A stretch of 64,000 nt of DNA from Tubulanus polymorphus (taxonomy: Eukaryota; Animalia; Nemertea): contig NC_134028.1 of assembly GCF_964204645.1 (NCBI RefSeq), positions 17,305,653 to 17,369,652 of the forward strand, written 5' to 3'. The position numbers were made by a program, and so were the translations under genes. Below, piece after piece: positions 2,085 through 51,608 of the stretch. The notes beneath the pieces were generated by a model, which searched no databases, was not told the origin of the DNA, and saw only the letters and a program-made list of their open reading frames with translations. The number at the start of each line of letters is the position of its first letter. Within the stretch, counting starts at the first letter, position 1.

Positions 2085-2197
2085 GCAATAGACTGTTAAA
2101 TTGGTTGAAAATATAAAAATAGATAATATTATAACTATTTCAATATTTAGATTAATAATTTATATTTATGATTTTTATAAAAACTAATTTATATATC

Positions 2198-5029: not shown

Positions 5030-5056
5030 TTGTAATATATATTTTTATTAAAATTG

Positions 5057-17361: not shown

Positions 17362-18292
17362 TTAATCGTTATATATCGCATCTTTTCGTCGATTTATTAT
17401 TTTTCAAGTCGAGATTATTTCGATGACTGAAATTGCTTCCGTCATTTTTGACTACTTGTTTTAATCGCCACAAATTGGCGCATTAATATGGCGGCATATC
17501 GCAATCTTTTTTGTGGTAAATCGACAAATTAAGCCGACTTGTTCTAAAATATTGCTGAAATATGAATATGTCCCAAAAATTATATTGGCAAATCCCAGTG
17601 GCAAATCTTTCAGTGGCAAATCGACAAAATTTCGTCGCCTCTTTTACTCTAACTTGACAGAGGGTCGAAAATATACCGCCACGCCGAGTTGAGATGATGT
17701 GTGCATAGCTAGGTGCGCCCCTTGGACAGTGGGAACGTATACATATATCCCCGGTAAACGTCACGTTAGGATACAGTGTTCAGCAACTTAGCGTCAGAAG
17801 TTATTGTGTCCGGTTGTCGTTGTTGTGCTGGGCTAATTCGGGCTCGAGATTCCATCGGGCTAACGAATCCTGTTGTGCAACGACGGTATCAGGACAATTC
17901 CCCCGGACAATTGTCTCCAGGTCTATTGCCCCCCCCCCCGACAATTGCCCCCGGACAATCCCGATCAAATCCCCAAGAAAGTTTCCCGCCGTAAAAATTC
18001 ACCCCCGTTTTATAATTCGACGCAAAGACGCGATAGATAACAATGATTAGGGTGTGGATTTACATTTTCGGGATTTATTCTCTGTTCAGCATTTCTATCA
18101 AACTCGTCTGTTGATGGGGCTTTAGAACCACTATTTGCTAAATTAGAATTATATGCCGTTTCATTATCATTATCAATGTTAGTATCAGCAGACACATAAT
18201 CATCATTGTTAGTATTGACATCATTATTATTTCCCATTTCTCCCATTTCATAAGCTTCTCCACCTTTTACATCCATATACATAATAAAATAA

Positions 18293-19522: not shown

Positions 19523-19538
19523 TTATATAATTAAAAAA

Positions 19539-20974: not shown

Positions 20975-20990
20975 TTATATATCAAAAGAA

Positions 20991-21696
20991 TTACTCTTTG
21001 CATCTTATAACTAATTCATAAATTACAGGACAGTTATTCAAATCAATTAAATATCCATTGTGATTTCTTACTTCTGACTTAAAATTATTGAATTGTGAAA
21101 TGCAATGCTTAAAATCACATTCTGTTAGATTATAATTTATTTGCATTCCAAATTCTTTAACATTCTTCAATGGTAAAATATTTAATTTACCAGAATTACA
21201 AGTTGTATCTTTAGTTGCTTCGAATGTTTTTGTAGCATCAATTAAATTGCAATAAATATAAAAATGCGTGTAAATGCGTGTAAGGTATTAAGTTTGTTGT
21301 AGCATCAATATTTGTAAAAGATCTATCTGGTGGAATTCCTAACATTTTTGCTATAAGTTTTTTTTACCATAGATTTATGTTTTTCACTATTAGTCAACCT
21401 TATCTTAATTTTATCAGAACTCTCACTCTTTGAAAATCTTATACTAAACCTGGAATTACTACCTAACTCGTACCAGGCTTTTCTATTAATTTCTTGCGAT
21501 AATGTATTAAAAAGGCTCTATGTTCAATAGTTTTATTCGATATATTGTAAAATGAGTTACATAAACTTATATTTACTTATTTTAAATCCACACACTTTTT
21601 AAATTCCCTATCTAATTGTATTTGTGAATTATGAGATTTGTAATTTGTATGTCTTCTTGAATCAACAAATATTCTATATTCTTTTAATTCTACCAT
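20991..21696 (-). pseudogene. Minor capsid (penton) protein, decayed
   Basis: MVELKEYRIFVDSR... start identical to the copy-3 gene. Confidence 0.7.
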
Positions 21697-21713
21697 TTAT
21701 TTTACATATTTTC

Positions 21714-22067
21714 TTATTCGAAATCTATTTCATGGTGCCCTTTTTCATTCTTACCTTTATATATGAAATAGAAATCACCTGAACATAATTCTTCTAAATC
21801 TTCACTTGATAACCTATGAAATCTATCTGGTAAATATGTTCTGAATTTATATGTATTTCCTTTTAATCCTTCATATTCTAAGTGAATAACTAATTTATCT
21901 CCATATTTGTTAGTAACTGTATCAATATTTGTAATTAGATATTTCTTATGAATTGTTAATTCTGTTAACTTTTTGAATTTATAATCTACAGATTTTACAT
22001 TTGTTATATCTTTAATTCTATCTAGAAATAATTTGTTGTTCTCACTGTGTGTTTGTTTACTCTCCAT
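21714..22067 (-). CDS. Small PLV protein (KYG...YLPxRF family; possible OB-fold ssDNA-binding protein)
   Basis: Intact 117 aa directly after pPolB; five homologous copies in the window; fold is inference. Confidence 0.65.
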   Translation of the reverse strand: MESKQTHSENNKLFLDRIKDITNVKSVDYKFKKLTELTIHKKYLITNIDTVTNKYGDKLVIHLEYEGLKGNTYKFRTYLPDRFHRLSSEDLEELCSGDFYFIYKGKNEKGHHEIDFE

Positions 22068-22096
22068 TTATAATACATATTTTTATTAAAATTTGA

Positions 22097-25000: not shown

Positions 25001-25800
25001 TGATTTAGTTAACTTATATTTTGTATTGTACACATGTAAAGTCATAAATATTATTTCATCGAATATTAAACCAGATCCTTCAAAATATTTATCTTCTATT
25101 TTACTTTTTATTTCATTATAAAATTTATCTAACCTATCATCTATTTGCTGTTTCGAAATGATATGTTGTGAATGATAATTTATATTATATATTTGTTTAT
25201 CTTCAGATTCTAAAAATCTAACTTAAGCGGATATACTAATTTTAGGATATTCTACGTCTGTAATTATTTTTATAATATTTTTCATATTTTCTAAATGTTT
25301 TTTATTTTCTTCTAATGTTTTACCTTCATGAAATTTAAACTCGATTGCAGCGGGACCAATATCAATTTTAAATGCATCAGTTATTTCAATATCTTTTTTA
25401 TTATCTAATGAATTAATATAATTTCTAACATTTTCCATATATGATTTCTTATTATTTAGAATATCTTTTATTCTTTTAATTGTCTTCGGTTTATTATTAT
25501 CATTATCAAAATAATCTTCACCTAAAATATCATTATTCATATATATTCTAATATGACTTTTAGATTTTAAATGTTCTTTAAAATATCTTTTGTTACTGAA
25601 TGATTGATTACACGTATCACATTTATATATTTCTTATTCATTCTTTAATTCTTCTAATTTAGTTTCTAATATATCATCTTTACATTATAATCTTAATTTA
25701 TTTTCTAAGTGTGTTTTAGTTTTATTATGTCTTGCTTTTTGAGATTTATCTATATTGATTTTACATGTTGGACAGTAGTACTTCTTAGTAGTGCTTCCAT
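22097..25800 (-). pseudogene. polB: Protein-primed family B DNA polymerase, intein-free allele
   Basis: NEDNKCFLW, DHDHLNGKFRGAAH (EndoVII-like), FYNFSGYDAH, FIDSYRFL, YIDANNLYGWAM, KLMNNAFYGK, LYFDTDSF, GKFKDE, RSKMYSY. Confidence 0.93.
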
Positions 25801-25879
25801 TTTAATATCAAATTTTTTATCAAAATTGATTTTAGAAGTTATTCATTTATATATTATTCATATATATGAAATTATTAGG

Positions 25880-26024
25880 AGTAATAGGGAATATGGGGGT
25901 TCAGGTTAAAGGTTGAAGGGGTGAGTGAGTAAAAAATAAAAAATAAATTTTAGCGTACGAGAATTTATTTTTTATGAGCACGACCCTTCGACCTTTGGTA
26001 TGAACCCTCATATTCCCTATTACT
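25880..26024. repeat. Imperfect 145-bp terminal palindrome of TIR sequence
   Basis: agtaatagggaatatgggggttcaggttaaaggttgaaggg / cccttcgacctttggtatgaaccctcatattccctattact. Confidence 0.9.
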
Positions 26025-34326: not shown

Positions 34327-34417
34327 AGTAATTGGGAAAGTAGGCTTTCATACCAGAGGTCGAGCGGTCGAGACACCACTCACCACCACAAGTAATTTTT
34401 TTTTCCTAATAAATGGG
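34327..34417 (+). repeat. Left TIR (includes the TAAATG start of the first gene)
   Basis: agtaattgggaaagtaggctttcataccagaggtcgagcggtcgagacaccact...cctaataaatggg; reverse complement of 51515-51604 with one substitution and one T-run indel. Confidence 0.95.
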
Positions 34418-34738
34418 AGATAGAAAAGCATTCTTAGCAACAATAAATAACAGAATTAAACCAGCAAAAAAAAATTTGAAATAAAAAAGTTAGTTGATGT
34501 TACAAAAGAAATTGAACATAAAATATTGAAATTAGAAAAGATAAAAACTAAATATGGAGAGAAAGTATCAGCGAATTTAAGCTACTGTAATGTTAGTACA
34601 TCGCGAGAATTTAAAGTATTTTTACCTGATAAATGGGTTTCATTGAGTACAGAGGAATTAAAAGATTTAGAAGGATTTAAAATAATCTACCATGGGAAAA
34701 ATGAAGACGGTCATCATGATTTAGAAATTGTTGATTAA
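34413..34738 (+). pseudogene. Small KYG/LP-family PLV gene (one frameshift in an A run)
   Basis: MGDRKAFLATIN.../KIKTKYGEKV...KVFLPDKW...IIYHGKNEDGHH. Confidence 0.7.
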
Positions 34739-35008
34739 ATAAAAAATAAAAATAATGAATATCTAGAATCCAAAATGACCTTAGTCGTTTTACAAAAAAA
34801 ACAATCATACAGTCAAACATCTGTTACATGTTATTATAAGAGAGTGCTTCATTTGAATATTGATCGATCAAACAGGTGTTGCAATTCAACGTTGTTGTTA
34901 TAGCAGTTATATGATAAGCACGCAGTACATACAACACACACAGGACAGGAGGATATATTACCTCTCGTGATTAAAAGGAATATTTCAATGTTTTTACGGT
35001 AAGTTTTA

Positions 35009-35323
35009 GCAAAACCACCCGACTTGACTTACAGAGTTTTTAGGGGATAAGCATCCCGTTATTGAGAGGCGCCACGAGATACCTATCCCCAAGCATTTCT
35101 ACTTACACCCCTGTGACCCACACCTCGCCAATTCTCCTTCAATGGTTGACAGGAAACACATTATATTAAAGGCGCCTAATGCATTTCCTATCAACCCCTT
35201 ACCCCCGAAAGGAGGATCGAAAGTCGAACTTGAAGGAGAACCACGGAGGGTGGACAAAGGTGCATTTTCGAAATGCCCCTGCAAGCCAAGCCCGGCGGAA
35301 CTCCAGTGGTTGAATGAATTGCC
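35009..35323 (-). ncRNA. Putative structured RNA of unknown class
   Basis: Nested long stems whose mismatches are A-C on + and G-U on -; two hairpins with GGCGCC-containing loops. Confidence 0.55.
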
Positions 35324-35754
35324 TTATATACTTAGCTAAAAGTAAATGTTGCTGGTGCTAAAAAAATATGTGAAATTTGAAATTATAAATTATTCCGAAT
35401 GAAAAGAATATAAGAATGAAAACTGATGAATGAATTATGGATTTTTAACTTAATTATGATATAATTTTTAATCAAATTAGTAATCAATTACCATGTTAAT
35501 TGATTAACAAATTCAAATTCAAATTCAAATATTCATTTTAGCATCACACCCAGTGCTGCCATCTTTCAATTTAAACAAAAAACTAATAATAAGAAACGAC
35601 TGTAATACAATATTCAAGTAAAAACAAAATAAATTAATAAAAATAATGAATATCTATAATCCGAAATGACTTATCTGGACAATTTAATTGCTCCGCATAG
35701 ATAGACAAAAGTAGTGAGATATTCAATTATTTTTTTTGCTTTTTTTCTAAAATA

Positions 35755-36123
35755 TTAATCCATTTTTTTTATTGTCAATTTTGGAATTTCAGAAGTATTT
35801 TCATTTTTGATAGCAGTTGTTTCAGAATTATAAATATCATGAATTTTATTTGATTTCTTATACCAATTACACCCAATCAAAATGAATACAATTACAAATC
35901 CAACTGTAAAATATAGACATTTATCAAATATTCTATCATTAGAAGGAGTAGAAATAACAATATTTTCACTATTTTTATTAACATTTTTATTACTTATTTT
36001 TTCTTTTACAGCTTTTTTATATTCTTTTGATTTAATTCCTAATTGCCGAGACCATTCAATTTGTTTCTGTGATCTCGGTTTTTTCTTCACAGTTAATTCC
36101 TTCACTTCTTCCACCTCGCTCAT
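35755..36123 (-). CDS. Basic single-TM viral protein
   Basis: KKKPRSQKQIEWSRQLG N-terminus; CLYFTVGFVIVFILIG TM; TAATAAATG start. Confidence 0.7.
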   Translation of the reverse strand: MSEVEEVKELTVKKKPRSQKQIEWSRQLGIKSKEYKKAVKEKISNKNVNKNSENIVISTPSNDRIFDKCLYFTVGFVIVFILIGCNWYKKSNKIHDIYNSETTAIKNENTSEIPKLTIKKMD

Positions 36124-36659
36124 TTATTATAGAAATATTTTTACTTTCAATATTTGAAAATGTTATAACCCCAGTTGATAATAATGTCATAAATCCGCCT
36201 AATTGAAATGATAAATATCCAATCCATTTATTTAATTCAGTCATAACTAAATAGTCATTTTTTAAATCGGAATATAATCTATTTTCATCTTCAATTGGTA
36301 GTATATAATTACATAATTTACTATAACCTTTTACTACATTTTCTGATATCGCGTCATTAATTCTAGCTGTTCTCGCGGCTTCATAAATCTTAAATAATCT
36401 AATAATTTCATCTGATTTCATTGTATCTAATTCATAATAAGTTAAATTTTTACCGACAAAATTTTTACATTTTCCAGATGCTATTAATATTTCTAATTGA
36501 TGTTTACAATAAAGATAATATTCATAATTATTATTTGTTGTAACATTATTAAAAGCACCATCATCTGGAATTAATGTTTTCTGTTATTCCTAAATCATCT
36601 AAAGTTTTTTCAATTGGAACATCACCATTTTTAGATTTTATTTTCTTTTCACCTCCCAT
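36056..36659 (-). pseudogene. Conserved PLV hypothetical protein (frameshifted)
   Basis: Paralog of 3398-3976. Confidence 0.75.
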
Positions 36660-36690
36660 TTATATAACAAAAAAATTAATTGTGTTGTTG

Positions 36691-36951
36691 CAACTAGAAT
36701 TCAACTAGAATGTAACTAGAATTCAACTAGATTAACAAGCTAGTTGAAATATTGTTGTTTTTATTTATTTCTTGTTAAATCTAGTTGATTTTTGTTCCAA
36801 CTACTAATAACTAGAATTCAACTGGAATGTAACTAGAATTAAACTAGATTAACAAGCTAGTTAAAATATTGTTAAATCTAGTTGACTTTTGTTCCAACTA
36901 CTAATAATTAGAATGTAACTAAAAATATACTATATTAACAAGCTAGTTGAA
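36691..36951. repeat. Intergenic AACTAG/CTAGTT repeat block
   Basis: caactagaattcaactagaatgtaactagaatt...aacaagctagtt present about three times. Confidence 0.85.
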
Positions 36952-36952
36952 T

Positions 36953-37541
36953 TTAAATAAATTCATATTTAAATGGGTGTTGTAATCTAAATAGTAATTT
37001 TGATCTTTTAATATTTTTCAACTTATCCATATATTCATTGTGTAAATCATGTGGAATAATATCATTTTCCTCAAATGCATTTTTCATCGATTTTCTATCT
37101 TTATTGTAGAATAAAACTAGAAATCTAAGGTTTTCTCTAAAGTCTTTAACAATTGAATTATAATTTTTATTTAAAACCCAAGTTGTTATCCCAAAATGTC
37201 TGCCAGAAAAAGCTAAATAACATAACTCACTCTCTCTAATTTTTGAATCATGTAAATTTGCACAATCATCTATAATGAATAATGTATTTGATCCTTTATA
37301 AATTATTATCTAAATTTTCTTTTACTGTTTTAGGATCTAATATAATAAATTTATTATTTCTAGTAATATTTCTATCATAAGTTTGATTAAATTCATATGT
37401 TGGACAAAATAATACTATATTATCAAAATAGTTTTTATAAACAGTTTCTAATAAGTTTAATATAGAATAAGTTTTTCCACAATTTGTTACACCAGAAATT
37501 AACATATTATGAGGTTCAAATATAAATAATTCCTTATTCAT
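36953..37541 (-). pseudogene. A32/FtsK-type genome packaging ATPase (one in-frame stop)
   Basis: Walker A ISGVTNCGKT, Walker B LFIIDDC, SGRH motif. Confidence 0.9.
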
Positions 37542-38671
37542 TTATACATTTTTTAATTTTACTTGACAATATCCATTCATTGAATTTATCTGGCCATCCA
37601 ACCCATTTTACTAAAGAATATTTTTTTCTTTTAATAGTTTTTGTTTTAAATACTTTTTCAATTTTATATTCTTGTTCTAGATTTTCAGTAGTTAAACTCA
37701 ATTCTTCTTCGTAAAAGTAGCCATCAACTTCTTCACCATCTAAATCTTCTAATTTATAGACATATGGTTTTGTTGTTATTACCTTTTTTATTTTATATAT
37801 TTCCCTAGTAAAATTTCGATCGTATCCTTTGTCAAATATCTTTTTATACTTAGAAATTCTAACATTTTGACCAACTTTAAATTTAGGTTCACCAGAATCA
37901 TCTACAAGAAATGCTCCATATAAATTATTCCAAACAATTTCAGCATTTTCAGGTTTTCTAGCATCAATAGGTTTCATTCCAATAGAAGAATGATAAGAAT
38001 TATTATATCCTTCTATCAATTTTGGTAAAACATCAATCCATTTAAAAGTATTATTTGCTGTAAAATATTTCCACATTCTTGTTCTTAATGTTCTATTAAA
38101 TCGTTCAACAACTGCCGCTTTTTTATCCGATTTTGTTGAAAAATATTTAATATTATGATTATCTAAGAGTTCATGAACAAGTGAATTATCAAACTCCTTT
38201 CCATCATCAAATTGTTTTTTTTTCTGGTTTTAGTTTATCATCCGAAAGAAATTTTCTTAAAACATTTGATGTTTGTTCAGCATCTTTTCTATAAAGTGGG
38301 AAACTCCATACATAACGACTAAAAATATCAATTATATTCAATATCCACCAATAATCATCATTATGTTTCTTAACATTTTTCATATCAATTAAATCTCCTT
38401 GCCACTGTTGATCTACATAACTTACCATAGTTTTACTAGTTTTATATTTTCTAACAATTTTTTTATGTGTTGTATATGTTGGTTGTTCTAACATAAATTC
38501 ATTTATATCTTTATATTTAACTAAATTTTGTGGGATTATCTTATCTAATTTATCTTGTTTTACTTGACGCCATATATTTTTGGTAGAAGAATAAGTAACC
38601 CAACTCTCAGGGTTGTAATATAAATTTCTTAAATATTGTTCTTTAGTATTAGGAGTTTTTTTACCGCCCAC
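37534..38671 (-). pseudogene. int: Retroviral-type (rve) integrase with C-terminal chromodomain
   Basis: QWQGDLIDM, IDIFSRY, QFDDGKEF, VVERFNRTLR, YN..YHSSIGMKP, YKIEKV...LVKWVGWPDKFNEWI. Confidence 0.93.
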
Positions 38672-38701
38672 TTATATATCGTTAATTTTAACTTTATATT
38701 T

Positions 38702-39965
38702 CTAATATTGAATACTATCTAATTGTGAATTCACAATATTTAATTGTGCGTCAGATATAATATAAATGTGCATTTTGAAATTGTTGCCTCTTTTCTTCGC
38801 CATGAATAATTGTATTCCATCTTTAGTATTTTGCAGTTTTTTCCCAGAACCATGTAATGAATTTTCCTCTGTTGTTCTAAAATCTAACCATAATGCATAT
38901 TTATTACCGGTATAATAATCAATTTGATTAATATTACAATTTTCAAATGATTTTACTTTTTCATTCATAAAATGTTTTCTAATTTCTGGCCACTGATCTA
39001 TCATTCTCATTCCTTGACAAAATATTATATTTGCTATTCCTTCGATAGTTATTTCTACTTTTGTTATTTCAGGATTATAATAATTATCAACATTTATTGC
39101 GCCATTAGTATATGTTGCAATGGTAAAAATTTAATATACCTTTAAATATATTAATATACCTTTAATAGATCTTCTTGGGAAGTTAATATTCTCATTAATA
39201 ATTTCATCATTTGCATTAAATAGTTACAGTTTTAAATTTATCAATATAATCATATAATAATGAAAATCCTTGATTGTATTTAGTTTGAATTATACTTGAA
39301 ATATTTTCATCAGTTACTGTATCATATTCTAAACATATATTCGATAATTTATAACTCATATCTTTATTAACGCTAGGTATTACAATTTCATTAACAGGAG
39401 CAAATGTTATTTCGAATATAACGTCTTCTTGAATTGCGTATTTATATAAAGGCGCATTATTATTTATCAATTCAAAGTCTAATGGAATTTTATATTTGCT
39501 TCCATAAATCGTTTTTATCAAATTATCTACAGCATTAGTTACTACTGCATTATTGGCTTCAGATCTTAATTTATTATGGTTTTCCGATTGAATACCCTGA
39601 AATATCATATTATTTCTATTTTCTTTAGTTAACCATAAATCTTTATAATGCATAAATAGATTATAATCATCTAATGAGAAAACTGTTTCTCAACCAATCT
39701 TTATAGTTAATTTTTTAATCAAATATCTCCCAACATTATCGACAACATAATTATTATCATGACCGGTTACTTTTATATCGGCTGATAAATAAATACTATT
39801 TGGAACATAAAAAGTATTTTGTGTTAATCTAGGAATTCTAACATATAAAGTTTCATCGGGATTAATATTTGAAGGATTATGAGTAATTATATGATGTGAT
39901 CTTTCTGCTTTAATAGCATTAGATATTCTAGAAATCTTAGAAGGACTTATATAACTCCCACTCAT
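38702..39965 (-). pseudogene. Major capsid protein (double jelly-roll), frameshifted
   Basis: ~420 codons; NPSNINPDETLYVRIP, IPLDF, LSNICLEYD, PRRSIKGI, ALWLDFRT...LHGSG; size and position typical of Polinton MCP. Confidence 0.75.
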
Positions 39966-39989
39966 TTATTTAACAAAAAAATTAATGAT

Positions 39990-41435
39990 TTATTTTTTAT
40001 TATTTTTTCTTGATATCTTTTTGATATCATATTCAAAAATAATAGCACTTACAACTGTAATTAAAAATAAAATAATATGTTCAGCAGCAAAGTTAAGAAT
40101 ATTCCCAGCAGATTTCAATATAAAACCAACAATTGATGCAATAATTCCTGGTAAAGCTGCAGCAGATTTTTTAGATAGTTCCCATAAATATTTTGCTAAT
40201 TTCTTTAAACCATCTTTAACTTTATCTTGTATAGAATTATTATCATTCGGGGGTTTATCCGGTTTATTTGGAGTAGGAGTAGATTTTAAAGCATTTGATA
40301 TTGCTAAACCAATTGTTGTAAATAACATAGTTACAGCTGTTAGAATTGAAAGAATTGTTATTCCTTCTAATTTAAATAATGACTTTATTCTATCTTTCAA
40401 TGATATTTCAGAATTTGGTTTAATCAAAAAATCTTTAAAAATAACTTTTAATCTATTTATATTATAATCATATGATTTTAACAATAATTTAATTTCTTCT
40501 TTTTGTAATTCTATGTTATATTCTAAATCATCTTTTTCTTTTTCTAAACGTAATTCTTTTTGTCTATATTCTATTTCATCAATTACTTGATGATCTAAAT
40601 CAGACTTTAATTGTTCTATTTCTTTATTTTTATCAGTTAATTCTTTTTCTAAAGTTCTAATTTTAAAATCTCTTATACTTTTATCATGCGCAATTTTATC
40701 AGATGCAAGCCTTATACTTTTAATTTCTCTAATTGCTTCAACAGAAAATATATTATTTAAATCTTCTTGATCTGTTGCATCAATTAATCCATTCGGTAAA
40801 AGTTTTTCAATTGGAACTTTATTTGATTTAAGTTTACTAGTTTTGGAAGTTATATTCTGTTCAGAAGTTGTTTCTGTTTCTGATTTCTTTTTGATTATTT
40901 CAAATAATTCATTAATTCTTTGTTTAAATACGTCTATATTATCATCTCTTTCTTTTTGTGTAACATCAGTTATTTCATTACTATTACTTATTCTCTTAAT
41001 TCTAAATGTTTCTAAATTTTTCAAAGTTGATTCCGCTAATATTGTTTTTAGTTTTGTCCTTTGATTAGTGATATCAATATAATAATCAATTTTCAAACGA
41101 TAATAACATTTACCATTATCTAAAAATTTTAATTTATGTGCTAATGGTCCAACGTCTTTATCATTTATGTTAAATTCAGAATTTTCAATTATATGTTTTA
41201 ATTTAGGTATTTTGTTTAAATTATCTAAATCTTGTTTTACTAAATCTGGGTCTAAATTTTCAGGATTTAATTGTGATTCTGCATTTTTGATATAATCAGG
41301 CATATTTAAATTATTATTATATCCTGGCTCATTACCATCATTAGAACTTGTTTCACTAAAATCAGGTTGTTGTTCTTCAGTTATGCCGGGTTCATCATAC
41401 GTATCCATTCCAATATCTTCTCCTTCTACATCCAT
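39990..41435 (-). CDS. 481-aa coiled-coil protein with C-terminal hydrophobic/amphipathic helices
   Basis: Intact ORF; EGITILSILTAVTML and KSAAALPGIIASIVGFIL segments. Confidence 0.8.
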   Translation of the reverse strand: MDVEGEDIGMDTYDEPGITEEQQPDFSETSSNDGNEPGYNNNLNMPDYIKNAESQLNPENLDPDLVKQDLDNLNKIPKLKHIIENSEFNINDKDVGPLAHKLKFLDNGKCYYRLKIDYYIDITNQRTKLKTILAESTLKNLETFRIKRISNSNEITDVTQKERDDNIDVFKQRINELFEIIKKKSETETTSEQNITSKTSKLKSNKVPIEKLLPNGLIDATDQEDLNNIFSVEAIREIKSIRLASDKIAHDKSIRDFKIRTLEKELTDKNKEIEQLKSDLDHQVIDEIEYRQKELRLEKEKDDLEYNIELQKEEIKLLLKSYDYNINRLKVIFKDFLIKPNSEISLKDRIKSLFKLEGITILSILTAVTMLFTTIGLAISNALKSTPTPNKPDKPPNDNNSIQDKVKDGLKKLAKYLWELSKKSAAALPGIIASIVGFILKSAGNILNFAAEHIILFLITVVSAIIFEYDIKKISRKNNKK

Positions 41436-41451
41436 TTATATAATAAAAAAA

Positions 41452-42835
41452 TTAAAATTTAAAATATAATATTCCTCCTATAACAATTCCTATACAAGTT
41501 TATTTAGTATTTTCATGGGATTTATTATCATCATTTAGTTTAATTATATCATGTTGAATATTATCAGTTTTAATATTTTCTGCAGTATTGTAATCTTTTA
41601 TTTTAGAATCATTATTTAATTTAATATTCTTAGTTTTAGTTCCTGTTGATTGAATGTGTTTTTTATTTTTTTCACCTTCCATTAATTTTGGAGCAGTAAT
41701 AATCTTTTTATTTATATCATTCAATCCAAATGAATTATTTTTTGTTGCAGTTTTAATTAGATTATTATAACCAATTATATTTCCCATCTTTAATACTAAA
41801 TCATTAGAAATAATAAAAAGATTAGGGCCTATACAATGATTTAATCTAATATGTGATTTATCTAAATAATTTTAATATCTTACAATGTTTTCTGGAATCG
41901 ATCTATTTTTATCATTATGAATAGAATCTTCAAATAATACTTTGAATTGTTTCTGTGTATCAAATGATGTATTTAAATTTCCAATTATTGGGGATCTTGT
42001 TTCAACTTGCGCACCTAAAATACATATCAAATAAGTTCTAATAGATTGATTTATTCTTTGTATACCTGATTTTGTAAAACCTTCATTATTTTCTAAAATG
42101 AAATAAACCCAACCATTATTGTTTTCTTGTTTTAAATTATCATAAAATTTCGGTAATTTATTGAAATTAATTGTTTCTAAATCCTTGGTTTCTATTTTAC
42201 CATAACCTAATTTATTACTATAGATATTATAAAAACTATTAGATGGTATGGGAAGTGCACAATATTCTGCAATCTTTTTAGGGCAAGGAAGTGATCTTAT
42301 TGTTCCAATTTTTGTTCTAAAATCAGAATTATTTATATCTATATTAAATTCATTACAAATTTTGTAAAACTTTGATAAATTAATATTATTATCTAATTCT
42401 TTAAAATGCCTAGATCCTGGTAAAGCGCACTCTAATTCATTTAATATTATTCTGATTTGAAAGTATGGATGAAATCTAAATAAACTTTGAATTAATTTAT
42501 ATTTAGAATTATTCAAATGATCATTCCAACTAATTCCACAACCTGTTGTTGCACAAATAAACAGCAAAATTTAATTGGTTCTGCCAATACTTCATATTAG
42601 ATTTTAATAACCATTGTTTTTCATCTTTCAATTTTTTAAAATTAATTAAATATGCATGAAATATATTTTCCATCTTTGCATTAAAATTATTAGTTTCAGT
42701 AACATAAATTTCTAAATTAGTTAATGAATCTAAAACTTCATTTCTATATTGAATATCTTTATTAAAATCTATTGCTGGAATATTATAATTAATTGATTTA
42801 TTATATTGGAAAGCTTTTGGAAAACTATCTACCAT
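41452..42835 (-). pseudogene. Conserved PLV protein with C-terminal TM
   Basis: Three ORF pieces; paralog of 18293-19522. Confidence 0.8.
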
Positions 42836-42851
42836 TTATTTAATTAAAAAA

Positions 42852-43286
42852 TTAATAATTTATTAATTCTTTTAATAATTTATCTTGTTCTTCAACTGTT
42901 ATATGACCATTCAAACTTATTATATAATCTAGTGTATTCTTCAATTTATTAATTTCTTTTATATTAGTTTTAATTTTTTCTTTATTACTTTTTATATTTA
43001 ATTTTGAACTTATATCAGTTAAAACACTTGAACTTAATCCTAATACACCAATTGATATAGCTAAAGGTGTTAATGGACTGAATATTGCTAGAAATGTTAT
43101 TACAGAACTAATTGTAACCGAACCACTAATAATAAGATAATATATAATTTTACTTTTTAAATATTTTTTCTTTTTTATCTTTAAGTCACTTTCAAATTCT
43201 AATATTTGTTTTTCTACATATATTTTTAATTTATTTTTATTTATATCATGAGGAATAATATCAATACTATCAACTTTATCTTCCAT
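42852..43286 (-). CDS. Two-TM small protein
   Basis: Intact 144 aa; two hydrophobic segments; TAAATG start. Confidence 0.75.
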   Translation of the reverse strand: MEDKVDSIDIIPHDINKNKLKIYVEKQILEFESDLKIKKKKYLKSKIIYYLIISGSVTISSVITFLAIFSPLTPLAISIGVLGLSSSVLTDISSKLNIKSNKEKIKTNIKEINKLKNTLDYIISLNGHITVEEQDKLLKELINY

Positions 43287-43305
43287 TTATTTAGAAAAAA
43301 AATTA

Positions 43306-43728
43306 CTAATTAGTAAATGTATATGCTACAAATATAACAATAACTGTTCCACCTAAAATCCAAATTATTTCATATTTCTGTTGTTCTTTACTTGGGGTAT
43401 AATAATCTGATAATTGTGGTTTGTATAGATGTAATTTTTCTTTAATGGTTACTGCGTTATATAAACTCATTGCATCATCAACTGATTGAAAATCTCTATG
43501 TGAAATCTTCTGATCATATAATTCCTTGTTAATATAATCCATATAGTTTTGTCGTTTTTCTATGTATTCTTCTGCTGCCTTATCATATTTCTCTAATGCT
43601 AAATTATGTCTTCTTTGTTCTCCTAATGAACTATTTTTATCAATATGCTTAAATAAATAACCGCCACCAGTAAATGCTAAAGCGTTAACAATTGCCGATC
43701 CTATAATAGTTATAATTGCAGAAGCCAT
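43306..43728 (-). CDS. Small protein, hydrophobic N- and C-termini
   Basis: MASAIITIIGSAIVNALAFTGG...; conserved in copy 2. Confidence 0.8.
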   Translation of the reverse strand: MASAIITIIGSAIVNALAFTGGGYLFKHIDKNSSLGEQRRHNLALEKYDKAAEEYIEKRQNYMDYINKELYDQKISHRDFQSVDDAMSLYNAVTIKEKLHLYKPQLSDYYTPSKEQQKYEIIWILGGTVIVIFVAYTFTN

Positions 43729-43752
43729 TTATTTAGTAAAATAATTACGCAT

Positions 43753-43974
43753 TTATATGGGAGGAATATATTTTTGTTTTTCCAAATAATCAATAGTGAA
43801 ATTAGATAAAGTAACTGCTAATGTTAATTTTAAAATATCATTTATATCAAATCTATCAACATTAACACTTCCCATTTTAAATACTTTTTTTAATACCATT
43901 GAATAACCAACAGTTCCAACTGATAGTAATGCTCCATTATATAATCCAGTTATTATCCACTTATTATCACTCAT
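43753..43974 (-). CDS. 73-aa hydrophobic protein
   Basis: Intact in both copies and nearly identical to 20413-20634. Confidence 0.8.
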   Translation of the reverse strand: MSDNKWIITGLYNGALLSVGTVGYSMVLKKVFKMGSVNVDRFDINDILKLTLAVTLSNFTIDYLEKQKYIPPI

Positions 43975-44334
43975 TTTTTAATCAAAAAAATTACTATCTT
44001 CAAAATATTTAGTTATCTTATTTATAATTATTTCAACATTTATTTCATTACTACTTTTATGATTATCATATATTTTGGTTAATATGTTTTTGATATCATC
44101 TATGATAAAACCTTCATCTAATTCATAAAATCTTAAAGATTATCTAATTAAATTAGTAATCTTTTCTACATTTAAAGTTTCTTTATCTATTGTTGTTTCA
44201 TACTCAAATGTTGTTTCATTAGAAAATGCAATATTTTTGATATGTGTAATTACATCATTAATGTTAAATTTCATTTCTTTCTCACGTTTAAAATCAAACC
44301 CAAAACATATACTCGGTCCAACAGTTATATTCAT
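43967..44334 (-). pseudogene. Hypothetical PLV protein
   Basis: MNITVGPSICFGFDFK; intact paralog at 20627-20974. Confidence 0.7.
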
Positions 44335-44350
44335 TTATATAGTGAAAAAA

Positions 44351-45106
44351 TTACTCTTTACATCTTATAACTAATTCATATATCACAGGAAAGTTATTCA
44401 AATCAATTAAATAACCATTATGATTTCTTATTTCTAATTCAAAATTATTGAAATGTGGAATACTAGGTTCAAAATCACATTCAGCTAAATTATAATTTAT
44501 TTGCGTTCCAAATTGTTTAACATTTTTTAATGGTAAAATATTTAATATACTAGAATTACAAATTGTATCTTTAGTTGCTTCAAATGTTTTTGTTGGGTCA
44601 ATTAAATTGCAATAAATATAAAAGTGTGTAAAAGGTATTAAGTTTGATCTACCTTCTGCGTATGCTGTAACAATTTGGGTTAATTCCTAACAGTTTACCT
44701 AGAGGTTTTCTTACTGTAAATTTAAATTGTTCGTCATTAGCTAACCTAATCTTTATTTTATTAGAACTATCACTTTTTAAAATTCTAATACTAAATCCGG
44801 AATCACTTCCTAATTTAGCTCGAGCTTTTCTATTAATTTCTTGTGCTAATGTATCTAAATTATATAATCCTGGTTTTAAATATATAAAAAACCATTTATT
44901 CCTTTTTTGTAAAAGATTGAAAAAATTAAATGTTCTAGACTTTTATCCGATATATTGTAAAATGAGTTACATAAACTTATATTTACTAATTTTAAATCAA
45001 CACAATTCTTAAATTCTCTATCTAATTGTATTAGTAAATTATGTGATTTATAATTTGTAAGTTTTCTAGAATCAACAAATATTCTGTATTCTTTTAATTC
45101 TACCAT
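44351..45106 (-). pseudogene. Minor capsid (penton, single jelly-roll) protein
   Basis: IFVDSR...LDREF...SLCNSFYNI...KPGLYNL...FYIYCNLI pattern typical of Polinton/virophage mCP. Confidence 0.7.
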
Positions 45107-45174
45107 TATTTATAACATAAAAAAATTACCGCTCATCACTAAAAATTAATTTTAATAAAATTTTTCCTTAATAA

Positions 45175-46523
45175 ATGGATGAGAAGATAGCATGTGAAAT
45201 TTGTGGTGAACTTCTAAGAAAAAGTAATATGGCTCGACATATGAAAATGTGAAAATATGAAAAAAACATGATGAAAATTATAAACCCCCTAAACTAAACT
45301 GTCCAAAATGTAATAAATTATTCTCAAGAAATTATGTTAAAAAACATTCAGAGAAGTGTAAAATTAATGGCGCAACGGCTAATGTTGATAGTAATGAAAG
45401 TAATAGTAATTCTGTTGAAGTTGAACCTGAAATTATTTGAAAAAGACCTTTCTTATTCTATGACAAGGATAATATAAAAGATCATTTCTGCGAGCCTTGT
45501 CGAATAAAATATAACGCTGAAAATATAGTATAGAAGATTGGGAGAATCATCAATTTCGTAAAGTACATATAGATAAAATTTCTAATAAATTTGAAACTGA
45601 ATTCAATGAAAGAAAAAATAGTTTATTAGAAAAAATAAAATATGAGAAAACGTTACCAGATAATAAAGAAACAGTTGAAAAGTTAGAAAAACAATATAAT
45701 ATATTAACAAGAAAAACATATTATTGTAAATATTGTAAATTGATTATTACAACAAGTAATTCAAATCGACATAATAGAACAACAAAACATAAAGAAAACG
45801 TAAGAAAATACCAGGAGCTTAATGAAGATCTATTACCAATAAATTATAAACGAAAATGTCCACAATGTAGTTATGCGACCTTAAGACAAGAAGGTACTGT
45901 TATTTTGTGTTGATTGTGGATGGCAAAAGAATTTATGGGGTGAAGAAAAAACTAGAAATTTTCTCATAGATCCAAAATTAAATTATCTAGATGAAATTTT
46001 TAAAATATTTTCTATAGAAGATCATACACCAGAATATATGCAATGGCTTGAAAAATGAAAATAATAGAAAATAAAAATGGTGAAATAACTAAAAAAGATA
46101 TTATAAAAACAATTATTCCGTCAACATTTAACACAAAACAAAAGAAAATGTATTTATATTTATTATTTAACGATTATTATGAAAAACCTAAATTAACAGA
46201 AGAAGATATGGAAAATATAAAAAAAAATATTTAAACAAATATTAATGTATCATTTGGAAAATAGAATAACAGATTCAATAAATTATGAATTCTTTTTAAA
46301 TAAGATTGTAAATTATTTAAACATAGATATTATAATTCCATTTGATGAATTAACAAACAAAAAGAAACAAAGAGAGCGAGATGAAATGTGGAATAATATA
46401 ACACGTTATTTAAATGAGAAAAATGAAATGGAAGAACCTAAACAAATTATACAAGAACAATTAAATGAAAATGAAGAAGCCAATAGTGATTTCGAGTATG
46501 ATGATATTGATTTTCTGTTTTAA
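45175..46523 (+). pseudogene. Multi-zinc-finger protein, decayed
   Basis: CEICGELLRKSNMARH, CPKCNKLF, YCKYCK...RHNRTTKH, CPQC. Confidence 0.65.
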
Positions 46524-49500
46524 TGGCCATAAGGTAATGTTTTTATACCATCATCTAAAATATGCCTTTTATCATCAAATTGATTCAAACTAGTTTTTTC
46601 AACTTCATTAATGTACATCTCGTGATCTTCTGATCTTAAACAATTCATTTTGTGTTTCATTACAATTGAGTTATATAAACACTTTATATAATCTTGGAAT
46701 TCTATATGTTTATCAACCACATGTTTTGTTATTCCTTTTAACTTTTTAGCTTCATAATCTTATGTTCTGTAACTATACATTCTACTTCTTATCCCAACAA
46801 ATTCAATCATTTCATCACCCCCTAATTCATCTTTAAACTTACCAGGAATCTTTTTATTATCATTGCTAAATAGTTCATGATCTTTGGGATAATTGCTAAA
46901 ATCAAAATGATGTTTTAATGTTTTTAAGTCTTTTGTTATGTCATTTGTCTTGATTTTTAGTATGTAGGCGTCCGTATTTTTGGCTATTAATGGAAATCCA
47001 CAGTTAAATGTACCATCTTCAGTTGATAAATCATAAACATAATCTGTTGGGTTATATATTTCAAATAAATCTTTAACTTCTTCAGTTAAATCTTTTTCTG
47101 TGTGGCTTAAATTAAAGCAATTTGGTTTAGATTTAATCAATCCAATATTCATATTGAAGCCTAATGAATTACATAATATATTTAACCCTGAAGTAGCAAC
47201 TTTTCCTTTCTGTGCAAAGGTTATCTTTTTATCCTTTGTAAATTTTTTAGCACCATCTGCTGCGTAGAATCCAATGAAGAACCATAATCTGGAACTATCT
47301 TTTCTTTAGTTGAAGTATTATTTTTAACTATTGCATGAATATAGAATTCATCATTATATTTTATAGCAAAATCTTTAGGATTGTTTACAAGTATTCTATA
47401 AACTGCTGTTGATTTCATATGATCCATGATTCTAAATGTTTTATGTGAATAAACTTCTTCACAGAATTTCTTAATTCTTTCTAATAATTTTAAGTCTTGA
47501 TTGCATAAATACTTACAATATTTATTACCCCAAACATAATTATACACACCTGCTGAACCATCTCCCATGAAAAATCCTTTGATAAAATATTCTTTTTCTT
47601 CTAATGTTTCGGGTTCTATGTTATAAGTATTATCAGTAATTTCATCAAATGACATATGATTCATTCTTTGGAAAAATCATTTATGTAATAATTCATCTAG
47701 AATTTTTATATCAGTTGGTTTTATTTCATCACCATTTCGTTTAATTAAACTATGATCTTCTGTAACATCTACAAACCCTAATTTAGTTCTAAATCTATAG
47801 ATTTTCTTATTTGTTTTATGCTTAATAATATTCTTTAATTTTTTCCACCCATTTCTTGTCCAAACATCCATTAATTCATTTATTTGTATTAATTCTTTTT
47901 CACCGTATGAAATATAACATTCATTTTGTTTTGGAATTATTTCTGATATTCTTCTTATCAATATTTTATCATTACATTTTAATAATATTGGGGTGTCAGC
48001 TGTTACAGAATCAAAATATAATATTTCAATATGCTTTTCCCCAAAAAGTGGTTGTAAAACATTATAATAAAAATCATACATTAATAATTTTGATACTTCT
48101 AAAACAGTTGAACCAATGAATATAGGTTTATTAAATTTCATTGACGTTCTTTTTAATTTAACTGCTGTTAAATAATCTTCAAATCTTTTATTTCCTAAAT
48201 GTCTAGGACTTGATTGTAAATGTCTTAATCTTTCAGAATTATTTACTAATTCAATATCATTTCCATTTCTAATATTTTCGCATGTTTTACCATAAAAACT
48301 ATTATTCATTAATTTGAAGAAATCTTTTTCAAAATCTGTTTTTGATATGGTTCTCAGTTGAGTATTGAAATCTATATATTTTTCTAACCACTTTGATTGA
48401 TTAAATTCAATATATCTATGTACTTTCTTTAATTTCATTCCTTGTTTTAGATAAAATTTTAACATTCTATAATGAACGATATAATTGTATTTATTATTTT
48501 GAGTAAGTATTAATTTTTCTGTAAAAACATGATCTTTCGGTTTTATTTTCTTCTGGTATTCACTTAAATAACTATCATCTACAGTTAAATGTTTTTGGCA
48601 ATAAGGTAAGTTTCTTGTTTTAAACTTTATATTTTCAGGATATTCTAAATCAACTACAAAGAAATAACCAATTGGTGCTTCATCTTCTAAACTCATAATT
48701 GCGCTTTCCCAATTAGTTTAATCATCATTTTCAACTTCTGTTAAGATAAAATTTTTATACGGTTGAGGTTGCATCATTGCCCAGCCATATAAATTATTGG
48801 CGTCAATATATAATAATTTATATTCATCATTTGCTTTAAAATATCTATCTCCCATAACACCACTAATTCCACCTCTAATTGATTTTTCAAATAATAAAAC
48901 CATATCTGGTTCCTTTAATAAATCTAATTCTACATTTGTATATTTTAAACCACATTGCCGGGGTAAACCAGAACTAGAGTAGCAATAACAAGGATCAACA
49001 TTAAAATGATTCAAATTAACTTCTCTAAATTTTTCAAATATGTCAGCCAATATCATAACATCTGATTTTAAATATAAATCAACTAATTCGCCATGATTTT
49101 TCATCTTAAAATGGTTCCAAATACCTAATGTTCTATTAAATACTTCGTCTTTCACATACTCCTCTTTTAATTGATCATAAAATTCTGTTACATTAAAATC
49201 ATTGTGTTTTTTATAAAATGAATAAGGAATTGCGCCTTTATATCTCAATAATTTAAAATCTTGTTCATTTGGATAATAATATCGAGTTATAACAAAATCA
49301 TTATCAACTAAACTTTTTGATAAATTATCTAATGAACTTGCTAGAAATCTATAAGAATCTAAAAATCTAATGCAACCAAATTGAAATGAAATATAATTTT
49401 CAGATGTTTTAGCTAATAGTTTAAAATCATATTTTCTTACATTTACACCATTCATAGCATTATATTCTTCTATTTCTTGCATAATTGTGCCCAATTTCCT

Positions 49501-51519
49501 TGATAATTGTTTTATAAATAGATGGGTATCATAGCCTGATAAATCATGAAATAATCTTGGAACGAAATTTACTTTTTTAGCTTGTAAATTACAATCTTCA
49601 TGAGCAGCTCCACGATATGTTGAATTTAAATGATCATGATCTCTAACTTTTTTATCAAATGAATAAAAACGTTTTTCACAATAACAACAATGAGTTGCAT
49701 AATTAAAATCAATTTCATCTTCTTTTTTCATAACTATTCTTTTATTTTTGTTTAATAATTTTGCAAAATCACTTTCTAATTCAATCATTTTATCACAAAA
49801 ATCATTAACTACATTTTCACCTCTAAAAGAAATATATTGACTTTCATATAACATAAGCAGCAGCTCTTTGATGAACTTTTTAAATTGTATTTATAATTGG
49901 TGGGTCTTGTGTTGTGTCTTCATTTAATTCATTTCCTTTATCCATTGATTTTAATAATTGCTTTTTGTTATATATTTCTTTTCTATCTTGATCAGTTAAT
50001 TCTTTATTCAACGATTCAAAATCCCCATAAATTACAAATGGAACAATGTTCTTATATGATTTTATGATTAGTAAATTTCAATTTATAATCTTTTTCTGTT
50101 GGCATTATCAATTTGCAAAAATCTTTATTATCACATAATTCTTTATGTTTTAATAATGTATTCTCAGTCATAAATTTAGATAAACATTTTCTACATAGAA
50201 AAATTTTATTATGGTGATCACTTTCTGTTCTAAAGAATAAATCAATTTGTTTTAACCACATATAATGTTCATTTTCATCTTTTTTGTAATATAACAAATC
50301 TATAGCATTTTAATCATCATAATATTCTGTTAAATATAAAGCTTCCAATGTATAATCTTTAATATTTTCACCCTTTGTCTTTGGTAATTGCATTAATTCA
50401 AATACATTTATTTTTAAATTATTAACTTTTTCTATTTTAGGAATCATTTTTATAGTTACTGGATATTGATCAATTTTATATAATGTTTCATATTTCCGGT
50501 AATTTGTTATTCTAAAACTATGCGTCATATCTTCTGTTGGGTGTAAACAACTAATAATTGACCATAGGAAACATTTATTATCTTCATTTTGAACATTTAT
50601 TACTGCTTTTGTTGTAAATGGTAATTTAATATAAGATGATGCTTTAATATCCTTTTCTGTTGTAAAGTTTGAATCATTTTTAAACATTTTATTACTTTTT
50701 GATGTTTTATTCCTTTTTGTATTGTAAACATTTAAATCTAAATATATAATTTCATTCAATGTTAAGCCAGAACCCTCAAAATATCTTTCTTCAATATGAC
50801 GTTTAAATTCATTAAATATTTTTTCTAACTTCTCTTTTATTTGTGATTTTGAAATTATTTCGTCAGAGTGTGTTTGAATATTATAATTCATTTTTTCTTC
50901 TGACTTTATAAATCTTACTTTCCCAGAGATACTAATTTTTGGATATTCAACATCTGTTATCAAATCTAGTATTTTTTCTATTATTTCATTAAATTTACTA
51001 TAATCTTCTATTGTTGTTCCTTTAAAAAATCTAAATATAATAGCTGCAGGACAAATTTTACTATGTAATGTTTCTAAAATTTCAATTGTATCTTTTATTT
51101 CTAGTGAATCAATATAATTTCTAACATTTTCCATGTAAGGTTTATTTGAAATTGATTTAGTTTTTGAAGTTGGTTTTTTTACTTGTTGAGGTTTATCATC
51201 AAAATAACCTTTTCCTAAAACATTATTACTCAAATTTTGGCGGTGTTTTTGTGATTCGAGATGTCTATTATAATTCCTTTTTACTATAAATTCATTACAA
51301 ACTTCACATTTTATTTCATCCACATTCATATTTTCTAATCTTTCTTTTCTTTCATTGGAATTTTCTGGAGTTTCAAAATCTATTACATTTTTTATATGAT
51401 TTGCAGTTTTTTCATGTCGTGATTTTTGGGATTTATCAATGTATTTTTTTACAATATTGACAATAATATTGATTTTTATTAACATTAGTGTTTTCTGGCT
51501 GGTGTTCATTCTCCCCCAT
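46520..51519 (-). pseudogene. polB: Protein-primed family B DNA polymerase containing an intein
   Basis: ZnF N-terminus, NEDNKCFLWS/HYMW, RDHDHLN..YRGAAH, FHDLSGYDTH, YIDANNLYGWAM, KLMNNSFYGK, YFD|intein|TDAY, GKFKDE, DDKR. Confidence 0.95.
46976..48009 (-). mobile_element. Intein with LAGLIDADG homing endonuclease in pPolB motif C
   Basis: Block A SVTADTPILL, block B VDVTEDHSL, EN motifs FIKGFFMGDGS and FFIGFYAADG, block F YVYDLSTEDGTF, block G LIAKN|T. Confidence 0.93.
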
Positions 51520-51608
51520 TTATTAGGAAAAAAAATTACTTGTGGTGATGAGTGGTGTCTCGACCGCTCGACCTCTGGTATGAAAGCCTACTTTCCCAAT
51601 TACTTACT
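51515..51608 (-). repeat. Right TIR (includes the pPolB start codon)
   Basis: Reverse complement of 34327-34417 plus an extra terminal TACT. Confidence 0.95.

Follow-up and report, generated by a model that had tools for sequence, protein, structure and literature searches.

Poxvirus-like start-site motifs in a decayed, multi-copy Polinton: candidate promoters of a possible helper-dependent element

Late promoters of vaccinia carry TAAAT across the ATG and a T at -10 (PMC11980589), its intermediate promoters have a spacer of 12 bases behind a core described as having no consensus (PMC12917281), and A2L, which encodes its VLTF3, belongs to the intermediate class (PMC5294985). Precedents for small elements that live with larger viruses come from Mavirus, which has its helper's late promoter ahead of all genes (PMC6723459), and from the Polinton-like viruses (PLVs) present in entomopoxvirus occlusion bodies (PMC11296320); VLTF3 has already been reported in a polintovirus subgroup (PMC11131425). 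According to a 2026 preprint (bioRxiv 10.64898/2026.06.19.733378), virions of animal Polintons have yet to be observed. A precise promoter code would make the transcription and spread of animal Polintons amenable to experiment. Our literature searches, which covered open main texts, turned up no description of pox-type promoters in these elements, and the word "promoter" is absent from the main texts of PMC11296320, PMC11161782, PMC8502044, PMC11131425 and three preprints. The original prediction for this locus had invoked promoter reports for entomopoxvirus PLVs, but the main text of PMC11296320 contains neither "promoter" nor "motif".

The window analyzed here, a 64-kb stretch of DNA, holds one complete Polinton (element A) and several partial ones, with a GC content of 20-25% (Table 1). 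Element A is 17.3 kb long, has 22-25% GC over most of its length and belongs to a multi-copy family, with a read depth of ~185-1030 versus 7-9 in the lowest host bins; contigs from three further runs under the same species label showed nothing over the element part, which does not bear on expression. Its terminal inverted repeats (TIRs) are 97% identical and lie 17.3 kb apart, the 94-bp repeat stopping a few bases beyond the ATG; microsatellites adjoin both ends, where we looked for a target-site duplication. Three metagenomic relatives (L002-L004) served for comparison. Another candidate relative, L001, was rejected as a phage with a spurious match. No Polinton relative came up when IMG/VR was scanned with the ATPase, with an alignment of the capsid, or with the 140-aa protein and an alignment of it.

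Table 1. Features of the window and their positions
Feature	Position	Strand	Basis or remark
Element A, full-length decayed Polinton/Maverick	34327..51604	.	TIRs and gene content
Left TIR, 94 bp	34327..34420	+	Holds late-type site; ATG 34413 opens terminal gene
Right TIR	51512..51604	-	Holds late-type site at polymerase gene start, ATG 51519
A32-type packaging ATPase gene, broken	36953..37541	-	Pfam Pox_A32; TAAATG start without T-run
RVE integrase-chromodomain gene, broken, start decayed	37534..38671	-	Pfam rve and Chromo
Major capsid gene, double-jelly-roll, broken	38702..39965	-	Fold of intact L002 orthologue
VLTF3-like late transcription factor gene with zinc-finger, broken	45175..46523	+	
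Putative B-family DNA polymerase gene, protein-primed, broken	46520..51519	-	Motifs spotted by eye
Intein in polymerase gene	46976..48009	-	Weak LAGLIDADG signal; sits in YxD-TD motif
Late-type site, ~200-aa gene of no assigned function	36657..36675	-	
Late-type site, major capsid gene	39963..39981	-	Matrix score 17.3
Late-type site, 481-aa coiled-coil/hydrophobic protein gene	41433..41451	-	
Late-type site, conserved ~440-aa gene (broken in A)	42833..42851	-	
Late-type site, 144-aa hydrophobic protein gene	43284..43302	-	Weak SLATT match in L002 orthologue
Late-type site, 140-aa conserved protein gene	43726..43745	-	
Late-type site, ~120-aa gene of no assigned function	44332..44350	-	
Hybrid site of VLTF3-like gene	45150..45177	+	AT-rich core, 13-base spacer, TAAATG; T-run within spacer; also in L002
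Element B, partial Polinton, related subfamily	18243..26024	-	
Element B late-type sites	19522, 19965, 20388, 20634, 20974		
Element B core-spacer sites	22067, 25800		
Element C, partial Polinton	1..5964	.	
Element C core-spacer sites	3240, 5029, 5384	-	
Element C TAAATG sites	1537 (+), 3976 (-)		
Element C endonuclease VII/HNH-type ORF	4224-5029		

The gene content of element A is that of a decayed Polinton. The intact capsid orthologue in L002 was modeled with a pLDDT of 88, and its structural matches are the capsids of iridovirus, PBCV-1 and mavirus; Pfam rve matched the integrase at 2e-5 on the window fragment and at 1.5e-10 on the L002 orthologue. Fragments of the putative polymerase gave no polymerase match in Pfam or PHROGs; the gene was recognized by eye from motifs of this polymerase type, and its intein lies at the YxD-TD site of B-family polymerases. 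In neither element A nor L002 did an ORF match the adenovirus-like cysteine protease that characterizes group 1 Maverick-Polintons and Lavidaviridae-type virophages, and PDB sequence searches gave no meaningful result for the capsid profile or for four ORFs of unknown function. A tentative "SSB-like" label for the terminal 115-aa gene gained no support.

Late-type sites share one layout, with A at -15/-14, a T-run centered near -10 and ATAAATG, and they stand before virion genes and most others. In element A, where the starts of the decayed genes were assigned manually and with knowledge of the motif, TAAATG marked 12 of 15 gene starts and 40 of the 667 remaining ATGs (Fisher p=4e-12), and TAAATG together with a run of at least five T marked 9/15 versus 2/667 (p=3e-15). 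The seven motif strings behind the original prediction were all found on the minus strand with their ATGs correctly placed, and the motif recurred, as it had also claimed, in both TIRs, at 1537 (+) and at the five late-type starts of element B. Enrichment over an AT-rich background was likewise borne out: the pattern T5-N2-7-WATAAATG occurs at 13 distinct ATGs in the window, every one of them a Polinton gene start, against an expectation of 0.98 from whole-window shuffles and of 0.84 +/- 0.91 (maximum 5) from 200 element-only shuffles. A matrix trained out of sample on 24 starts of L002-L004 scored at least 8 at 13 of the 15 element A starts, at 0/667 other ATGs of the element and at 0/1014 host ATGs (0/1,681 non-starts together), which lessens the bias from placing the starts by hand. 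Automatically called ORFs behaved similarly, with TAAATG at 13/14 in L002, 5/5 in L003 and 3/4 in L004. Pooling the three elements of the window with the three relatives gives TAAATG at 46 of 53 starts, with A at -1 in every one of the 46 and T at -10 in 39. The motif, originally described at nearly every structural gene, heads all gene classes rather than structural genes only, and three starts of element A (38671, 43974 and 45106) depart from it. Nor is the code universal in the group, since the distant relative L126 (33% GC) has TAAAATG-type starts in 3/3 long genes and no TAAATG, and the motif is absent at the ORFs listed for another, L127 (55% GC). Among the matches listed for a pattern scan of viral contigs were phages, giant viruses and the end of one poxvirus; in none of these was the motif as dense as in the Polintons.

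In elements of 20-25% GC, a motif of this kind might simply follow from high AT content and closely packed genes, where the preceding stop codon touches the ATG, or it might act in translation or termination instead of as a promoter. The stop of the L002 integrase supplies the TAA of the ATPase start, and T5NT is avoided within coding strands (6 versus 12.8 expected, z=-3.2), which would suit terminators too. We nevertheless consider this explanation highly improbable: controls of matched composition fall short by orders of magnitude, the nine intergenic gaps measured in L002 span 3-107 bases, the motif also occurs where no stop codon precedes it, at terminal and divergent genes (34413, 51519, 45175), and the upstream elements keep a fixed spacing.

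The second class of site consists of an AT-rich core, a spacer of 12-13 bases (in 8/8 listed sites) and TAAA(A)TG, and it precedes the polymerase gene in copies B and C, the VLTF3-like gene, the terminal 115-aa gene and the endonuclease gene. The full pattern was seen five times versus 0.07 expected, with a core defined after the data had been seen; the core motif alone is not significant (5 versus 1.66 +/- 1.26). At the level of sequence, this class has the spacing of vaccinia intermediate promoters, and the G8R start in the orthopoxvirus stretch that we examined likewise has a spacer of 12 bases. The VLTF3-like gene is preceded by a core in both element A and L002. The two classes sort imperfectly, as the polymerase gene of element A is late-type and the minor-capsid gene of L002 is of the core type.

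How far the late-type site is specifically poxviral was assessed by comparison with viral gene starts. The positional A/T profile of the Polinton sites fits nine orthopoxvirus TAAATG starts (p=0.023-0.034; effectively one genome, with a window picked after the data had been seen), versus p=0.74 for 97 other giant-virus starts and p=0.98 for 46 internal TAAATG; the pox counts leave out L204 and L205, which are phages among the five loci of the pox control scan. T at -10 occurs in 7/9 orthopoxvirus controls and 54/97 other giant-virus starts. TAAATG is nonetheless frequent elsewhere: in 52 non-pox giant-virus loci it occurs at 99/431 starts versus a few percent of other ATGs (13/21 in L169), mostly as ATAAATG, as in the Polinton, and two records whose capsids are closest to that of Singapore grouper iridovirus (E ~1e-113 to 1e-115) have ATAAATG at the capsid start. 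TAAATG alone is thus not pox-specific, and the original designation as a poxvirus late-type promoter holds for TAAAT over the ATG, T at -10 and the A/T profile, but not for exclusivity. Among the observations counted against a pox-type helper, neither helper sequence nor transcripts came to light, A at -1 fits the giant-virus starts (71/97) better than orthopoxvirus (8/14), and orthopoxvirus sites score low on the Polinton matrix (0/14 reach at least 5, versus 14/97 giant-virus starts).

These counts bear on whether the element is a satellite of a nucleocytovirus outside the poxviruses, for instance a large DNA virus that is related to iridoviruses and encodes an RNA polymerase. The intein also speaks for this: it is 37-47% identical to 17 viral loci, with an identical YGD|S site in 13/16 examined (L201 left out), and the relatives found lie in giant-virus DNA polymerases, none shown to be poxvirus; the original proposal that a pox-like helper would explain the intein is not supported. 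The intein is missing from copy B and some genomic copies, with reads skipping 46966-48006/48010. That its site is common to giant-virus polymerase inteins was itself counted toward a pox helper. Even so, the A(-15/-14)/T(-10) spacing is missing from the giant-virus starts and only 6/97 reach a matrix score of at least 8, and we regard a non-pox helper as unlikely; the 52 loci were gathered via one Rpb1 fragment of a motif-bearing locus and two of them are typed, so that the comparison speaks for iridovirus-related records and not for other lineages such as asfarvirus-like ones.

The VLTF3-like gene was examined by profile and fold comparisons. Pfam Pox_VLTF3 matched over 46221-46520 with E=8e-6, above the cut-off; there are intact homologues (P0113/P0114); 26/30 Atlas matches were Pox_VLTF3; and the top BFVD fold match was cowpox VLTF3 (E=2.6e-4, from a low-confidence model with a pLDDT of 50), a match counted in favor of a pox helper, with entomopoxvirus VLTF3s at ranks 6 and 14. 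Pfam searches of the intact homologues were negative, a lack of uniformity that was counted on the other side, and a word-index search found no VLTF3 homologues of greater length. With three lines positive, the protein is likely a divergent member of the VLTF3 family (PF04947).

This gene, absent from the original prediction, also keeps an autonomous route in play, in which a nuclear virus would use its own factor to bring the host's RNA polymerase II to a T-run/TAAAT promoter private to the virus, the pox likeness reflecting shared ancestry of that factor. Medusavirus, a virus without its own RNA polymerase, expresses VLTF3 (PMC8400408), integration requires nuclear entry, and the element is multi-copy. 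The earlier argument that tight packing leaves no space for Pol II promoters is weak, as these may overlap coding DNA. We still find autonomy doubtful. The polymerase and VLTF3-like genes stand behind the same initiator, so that for no gene is a host-type promoter evident from which the cycle could begin. In templated animal mRNA, a T at -3, the base that the element's starts have there, makes for a poor start context. Coding strands show no avoidance of AATAAA (75 versus 75.5 expected, 5.5 per kb, with no host Pol II control); this, like the avoidance of T5NT, was counted for a pox helper. Alternatively, a cytoplasmic linear element could have its own reduced pox-like RNA polymerase, or a sibling Polinton could carry one. 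Yeast pGKL elements combine a TAAAN initiator, slippage and their own polymerase (PMC6211774). We think this very unlikely here, as no RNA polymerase or subunit of one was recognizable among the ORFs scanned in the element, and none of the unknown ORFs tried resembled a pox RNA polymerase subunit.

Together, these data lead us to favor, with a probability of roughly one in two, the reading that this decayed, multi-copy Polinton is a satellite of a putative co-infecting poxvirus-like helper, whose RNA polymerase it would use. The pox-type reading originally put forward is reinforced by the second class of site and by the element's VLTF3-like gene, whereas the occurrence of TAAATG outside poxviruses weakens it. 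Under this satellite reading, the linear genome, once outside the chromosome, would be transcribed as naked DNA within the cytoplasmic factory of the helper. Intermediate factors of the helper would fire the core-spacer class, yielding polymerase and VLTF3, and late factors would next fire the T-run class, with the element's VLTF3-like factor predicted to aid the switch-on of the capsid genes. Initiation within the AAA may be followed by slippage that adds a 5' poly(A) leader, replacing the T at -3. More tentatively, this animal Polinton family may represent endogenous virophages of a putative AT-rich poxvirus-like virus that copy its whole post-replicative cascade, with intermediate-type promoters for polymerase and for a VLTF3 acquired by capture, and with late-type promoters for virion genes; chromosomal copies would then be a fossil record of the helper and possibly an inherited antiviral defence. 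If the pox-type reading is true, the virophage lifestyle extends to integrated animal elements, a poxvirus-like virus is predicted in the host, and a sequence signature would be at hand to sort helper-dependent from autonomous Polintons across genomes.

Among described systems, entomopoxvirus PLVs (Barth et al. 2024, PMC11296320) are likewise small Polinton-like genomes proposed as poxvirus parasites; compared by description only, those are ~12 kb and come from occlusion bodies, whereas element A is chromosomal and multi-copy. Like Mavirus and Sputnik, the element has integrase and capsid genes, a putative protein-primed polymerase (pPolB) gene and, ahead of almost every gene, what may be a late promoter of its helper; unlike them, its helper is putative, its motif is another one, its host is likely an animal and not a protist, it has its own VLTF3-like gene, and no protease was found. 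Among Mavericks/Polintons (Polintoviricetes), it comes nearest to group 2 of bioRxiv 10.64898/2026.06.19.733378; it shares with these elements a size of 15-20 kb, TIRs, RVE integrase, A32 ATPase and double-jelly-roll capsid, carries a putative pPolB recognized by eye, and differs from them by the lack of a detected cysteine protease, a polymerase intein and a two-class, pox-style promoter code. Vaccinia promoters resemble that code in the TAAAT over the ATG, the T peak at -10, the core with a 12-base spacer and TAAA, and the late-factor gene behind an intermediate type. In contrast to vaccinia, the element's sites are far more AT-rich and uniform (an invariant A at -1 and a longer T-run) and occur on nearly every gene, with no early class seen. 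New here are the motif on all gene classes, the intermediate-like second class and the broken VLTF3-like gene within the element.

The host DNA of the window (35-42% GC), which contained microsatellites and a fragment of a LINE-type endonuclease, was interrupted by AT-rich islands of 20-25% GC, the largest of which was element A, bounded by 94-bp TIRs that were 97% identical. Its broken genes encoded an intein-bearing B-family polymerase (polymerase motifs read by eye), a double-jelly-roll capsid protein, a probable minor capsid protein (assigned solely by eye), several hydrophobic proteins, an integrase of the RVE type with a chromodomain, and an A32 ATPase; no protease was found among the ORFs of this element or of its intact relative L002. 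An intact orthologue of the capsid protein gave a fold at pLDDT 88 that matched iridovirus, PBCV-1, and mavirus capsids. Raw reads with the same species label covered element A about 185-1030-fold and the lowest host bins 7-9-fold; if the latter are single-copy, the genome would contain from tens to more than a hundred related copies. The microsatellites on both flanks of the element may be its preferred target.

Coordinates of Polinton-related and neighboring features (window positions unless a locus is named)
Feature	Position	Description
Element A	34327-51604	full-length, decayed Polinton
Element B	18243-26024	partial relative
Element C	1-5964	partial relative
Short Polinton fragment, first of two	about 12600-14700	inverted, minor-capsid-like sequence
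Short Polinton fragment, second of two	58616-59068	terminal-gene and polymerase-start sequence
VLTF3-like gene	45175-46523 (+)	element A
Polymerase intein	46976-48009	element A
Terminus of element C	5623-5964	imperfect 340-base palindrome, 80% self-complementary; element A's short TIR differs
End of element B	about 25870-26024	related to palindromic terminus of element C, shorter
Flanks of element A	34094-34327, 51604-51690	TA/TG/TATG microsatellites
Direct repeats	36685-36951	about 60-170 bases; between ATPase gene and the 36659 gene, upstream of the latter
Tandem array	58900-61300	31-base period
Deoxynucleoside kinase gene	L002:10340-10981	Pfam dNK, E=2e-31; late-type site; absent from that place in element A

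All seven T-run/TAAATG sites quoted in the original prediction were present, and the motif was enriched over AT background: T5-N2-7-WATAAATG occurred at 13 distinct ATGs in the 64 kb, every one a Polinton start, where whole-window or element-only shuffles gave fewer than one. TAAATG stood at 12/15 gene starts of element A vs 40/667 other ATGs, and together with a T-run at 9/15 vs 2/667. In the metagenomic Polinton relatives L002 (intact), L003, and L004, the motif was found at 15/15, 5/6, and 4/5 hand-listed starts and at 13/14, 5/5, and 3/4 automatically called starts, respectively. A position matrix trained on 24 starts from these relatives alone scored 8 or more at 13/15 element A starts, 0/667 other element A ATGs, and 0/1014 host ATGs. 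In the 46 TAAATG starts profiled, A was invariant at -1 and frequent at -15 (39) and -14 (34), with T across -13 to -7 (39 at -10, 41 at -9). Of two more distant relatives, L126 had starts of the TAAAATG type, and the motif was not seen at the ORFs listed for the GC-rich L127. That the start motif is a compositional or termination signal is very improbable. T5NT was rarer than expected in coding strands of the intact relatives L002-L004 (6 vs 12.8; z=-3.2), as was T6, so the T-runs may double as terminators.

As predicted, both TIRs of element A carried the motif, and because each ends just past the ATG, each carries the start signal of a terminal gene, including the polymerase gene, which had a late-type site at its start. 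The motif had been assigned to nearly every structural gene; since the terminal genes have it too, it is not limited to structural ones. The promoter-like code in this Polinton family is real, strongly enriched, conserved, and richer than originally described.

A second class of start sites combined an AT-rich core, a spacer, and a TAAA initiator. Each time TTTTAATAAAA occurred in the window or in L002-L004 (seven times), a gene start followed 13-14 bases downstream, and the spacer to the initiator was 12-13 bases in 8/8 core-spacer sites, one core variant included. In element A such a site preceded the VLTF3-like gene, as it did in L002, where the probable minor capsid gene had one as well. 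In both B and C it preceded the polymerase gene; element B also had one at its terminal 115-aa gene, a homologue of the TIR gene, and element C at an endonuclease gene and one uncharacterized gene. With the core defined after seeing the data, the full pattern occurred 5 times vs 0.07 expected, and the core alone 5 times vs 1.66, which was not significant. In vaccinia late promoters, TAAAT overlaps the start codon and a T at -10, one of several T residues, is conserved; intermediate promoters lack the -10 T, have an AT-rich stretch further upstream (PMC11980589), and place a 12-base spacer ahead of TAAA (PMC12917281). The G8R start in an orthopoxvirus stretch had a 12-base spacer.

The term "poxvirus late-type promoter" held only in part. 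Between -16 and -4, with composition fixed, the A/T profile by position fitted orthopoxvirus starts (9 sites, the three records being near-identical; p=0.023-0.034) but neither giant-virus starts (p=0.74) nor internal TAAATG (p=0.98), suggesting on thin data that the spacing is pox-like. TAAATG itself, found at 9/18 starts of the orthopoxvirus control stretch, was however also present at 99/431 unique starts in 52 giant-virus loci (maximum 13/21 in one locus), a set gathered through one RNA polymerase fragment, with 2 records typed and iridovirus-like capsids in two. In four loci of large DNA viruses (L169, L171, L172, and L184, two with iridovirus-like capsids), roughly one in two gene starts carried ATAAATG, a pox-like initiator beyond the poxviruses themselves. 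Raw matrix scores of 5 or more were reached by 0/14 orthopox vs 14/97 giant-virus sites, and A at -1 agreed better with giant-virus sites than with orthopox sites. The exact letters of the Polinton signal match no tested virus. A non-pox nucleocytovirus as helper, closer in these letters and not in the A/T profile, is a less likely candidate.

The broken zinc-finger gene of element A, not noted in the original prediction, matched Pfam Pox_VLTF3 above cut-off in its last part. Two intact homologues were found: VLTF3 clusters made up 26/30 Atlas hits for one, and a low-confidence model of the other returned cowpox VLTF3 as top match (E=2.6e-4) with many VLTF3s below; a Pfam search of both did not detect VLTF3. 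VLTF3 has already been reported from a subgroup of polintoviruses (PMC11131425). The vaccinia VLTF3 gene, A2L, is an intermediate gene required for late transcription (PMC5294985), and the core-type site at the VLTF3-like gene is in keeping with that status.

The element thus has two fixed-spacing classes of start signal and a VLTF3-like gene, but no recognizable RNA polymerase gene, and no pox polymerase subunit was found among the ORFs tried. A pox-type helper is the leading but unproven explanation of the code, with a probability of about 0.5. A freed linear Polinton genome would be read in the cytoplasm by the polymerase of a poxvirus-like helper, the core-spacer class being transcribed first and the T-run class next, aided by the element's own VLTF3. 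Slippage on the AAA of the initiator, shown in vaccinia and yeast linear elements (PMC6211774), would add a poly(A) leader to transcripts. Transcription by a sibling element that encodes a polymerase of its own is very improbable. Medusavirus (PMC8400408) sets a precedent for host Pol II directed by the element-encoded factor, likewise a less likely reading than the pox-type helper; AATAAA occurred 75 times in 13.6 kb of coding strands of the intact relatives vs 75.5 expected, in a comparison without a host-gene control, so the nuclear poly(A) signal is not avoided.

The pox-like helper had been proposed to explain the intein as well, but the relatives of the intein in viral loci indicate no poxvirus. 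It was 37-47% identical to 17 viral loci, 13 of the 16 examined (two confirmed as B-family polymerases) sharing its YGD|S insertion point, and its site in the element A polymerase is that of giant-virus PolB inteins. It is polymorphic in the genome: reads occurred both with and without it, and the element B copy lacks it. These intein matches are compatible with past contact with large DNA viruses.

In the main texts of the openly available Polinton-related literature searched, pox-type promoters were not described for Polintons. Similar reports had been mentioned for PLVs with entomopoxviruses; PLVs are indeed found in entomopoxvirus occlusion bodies, but the main text of that source contains no promoter analysis (PMC11296320). 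Virophages, for their part, carry the late promoters of their helper (PMC6723459).
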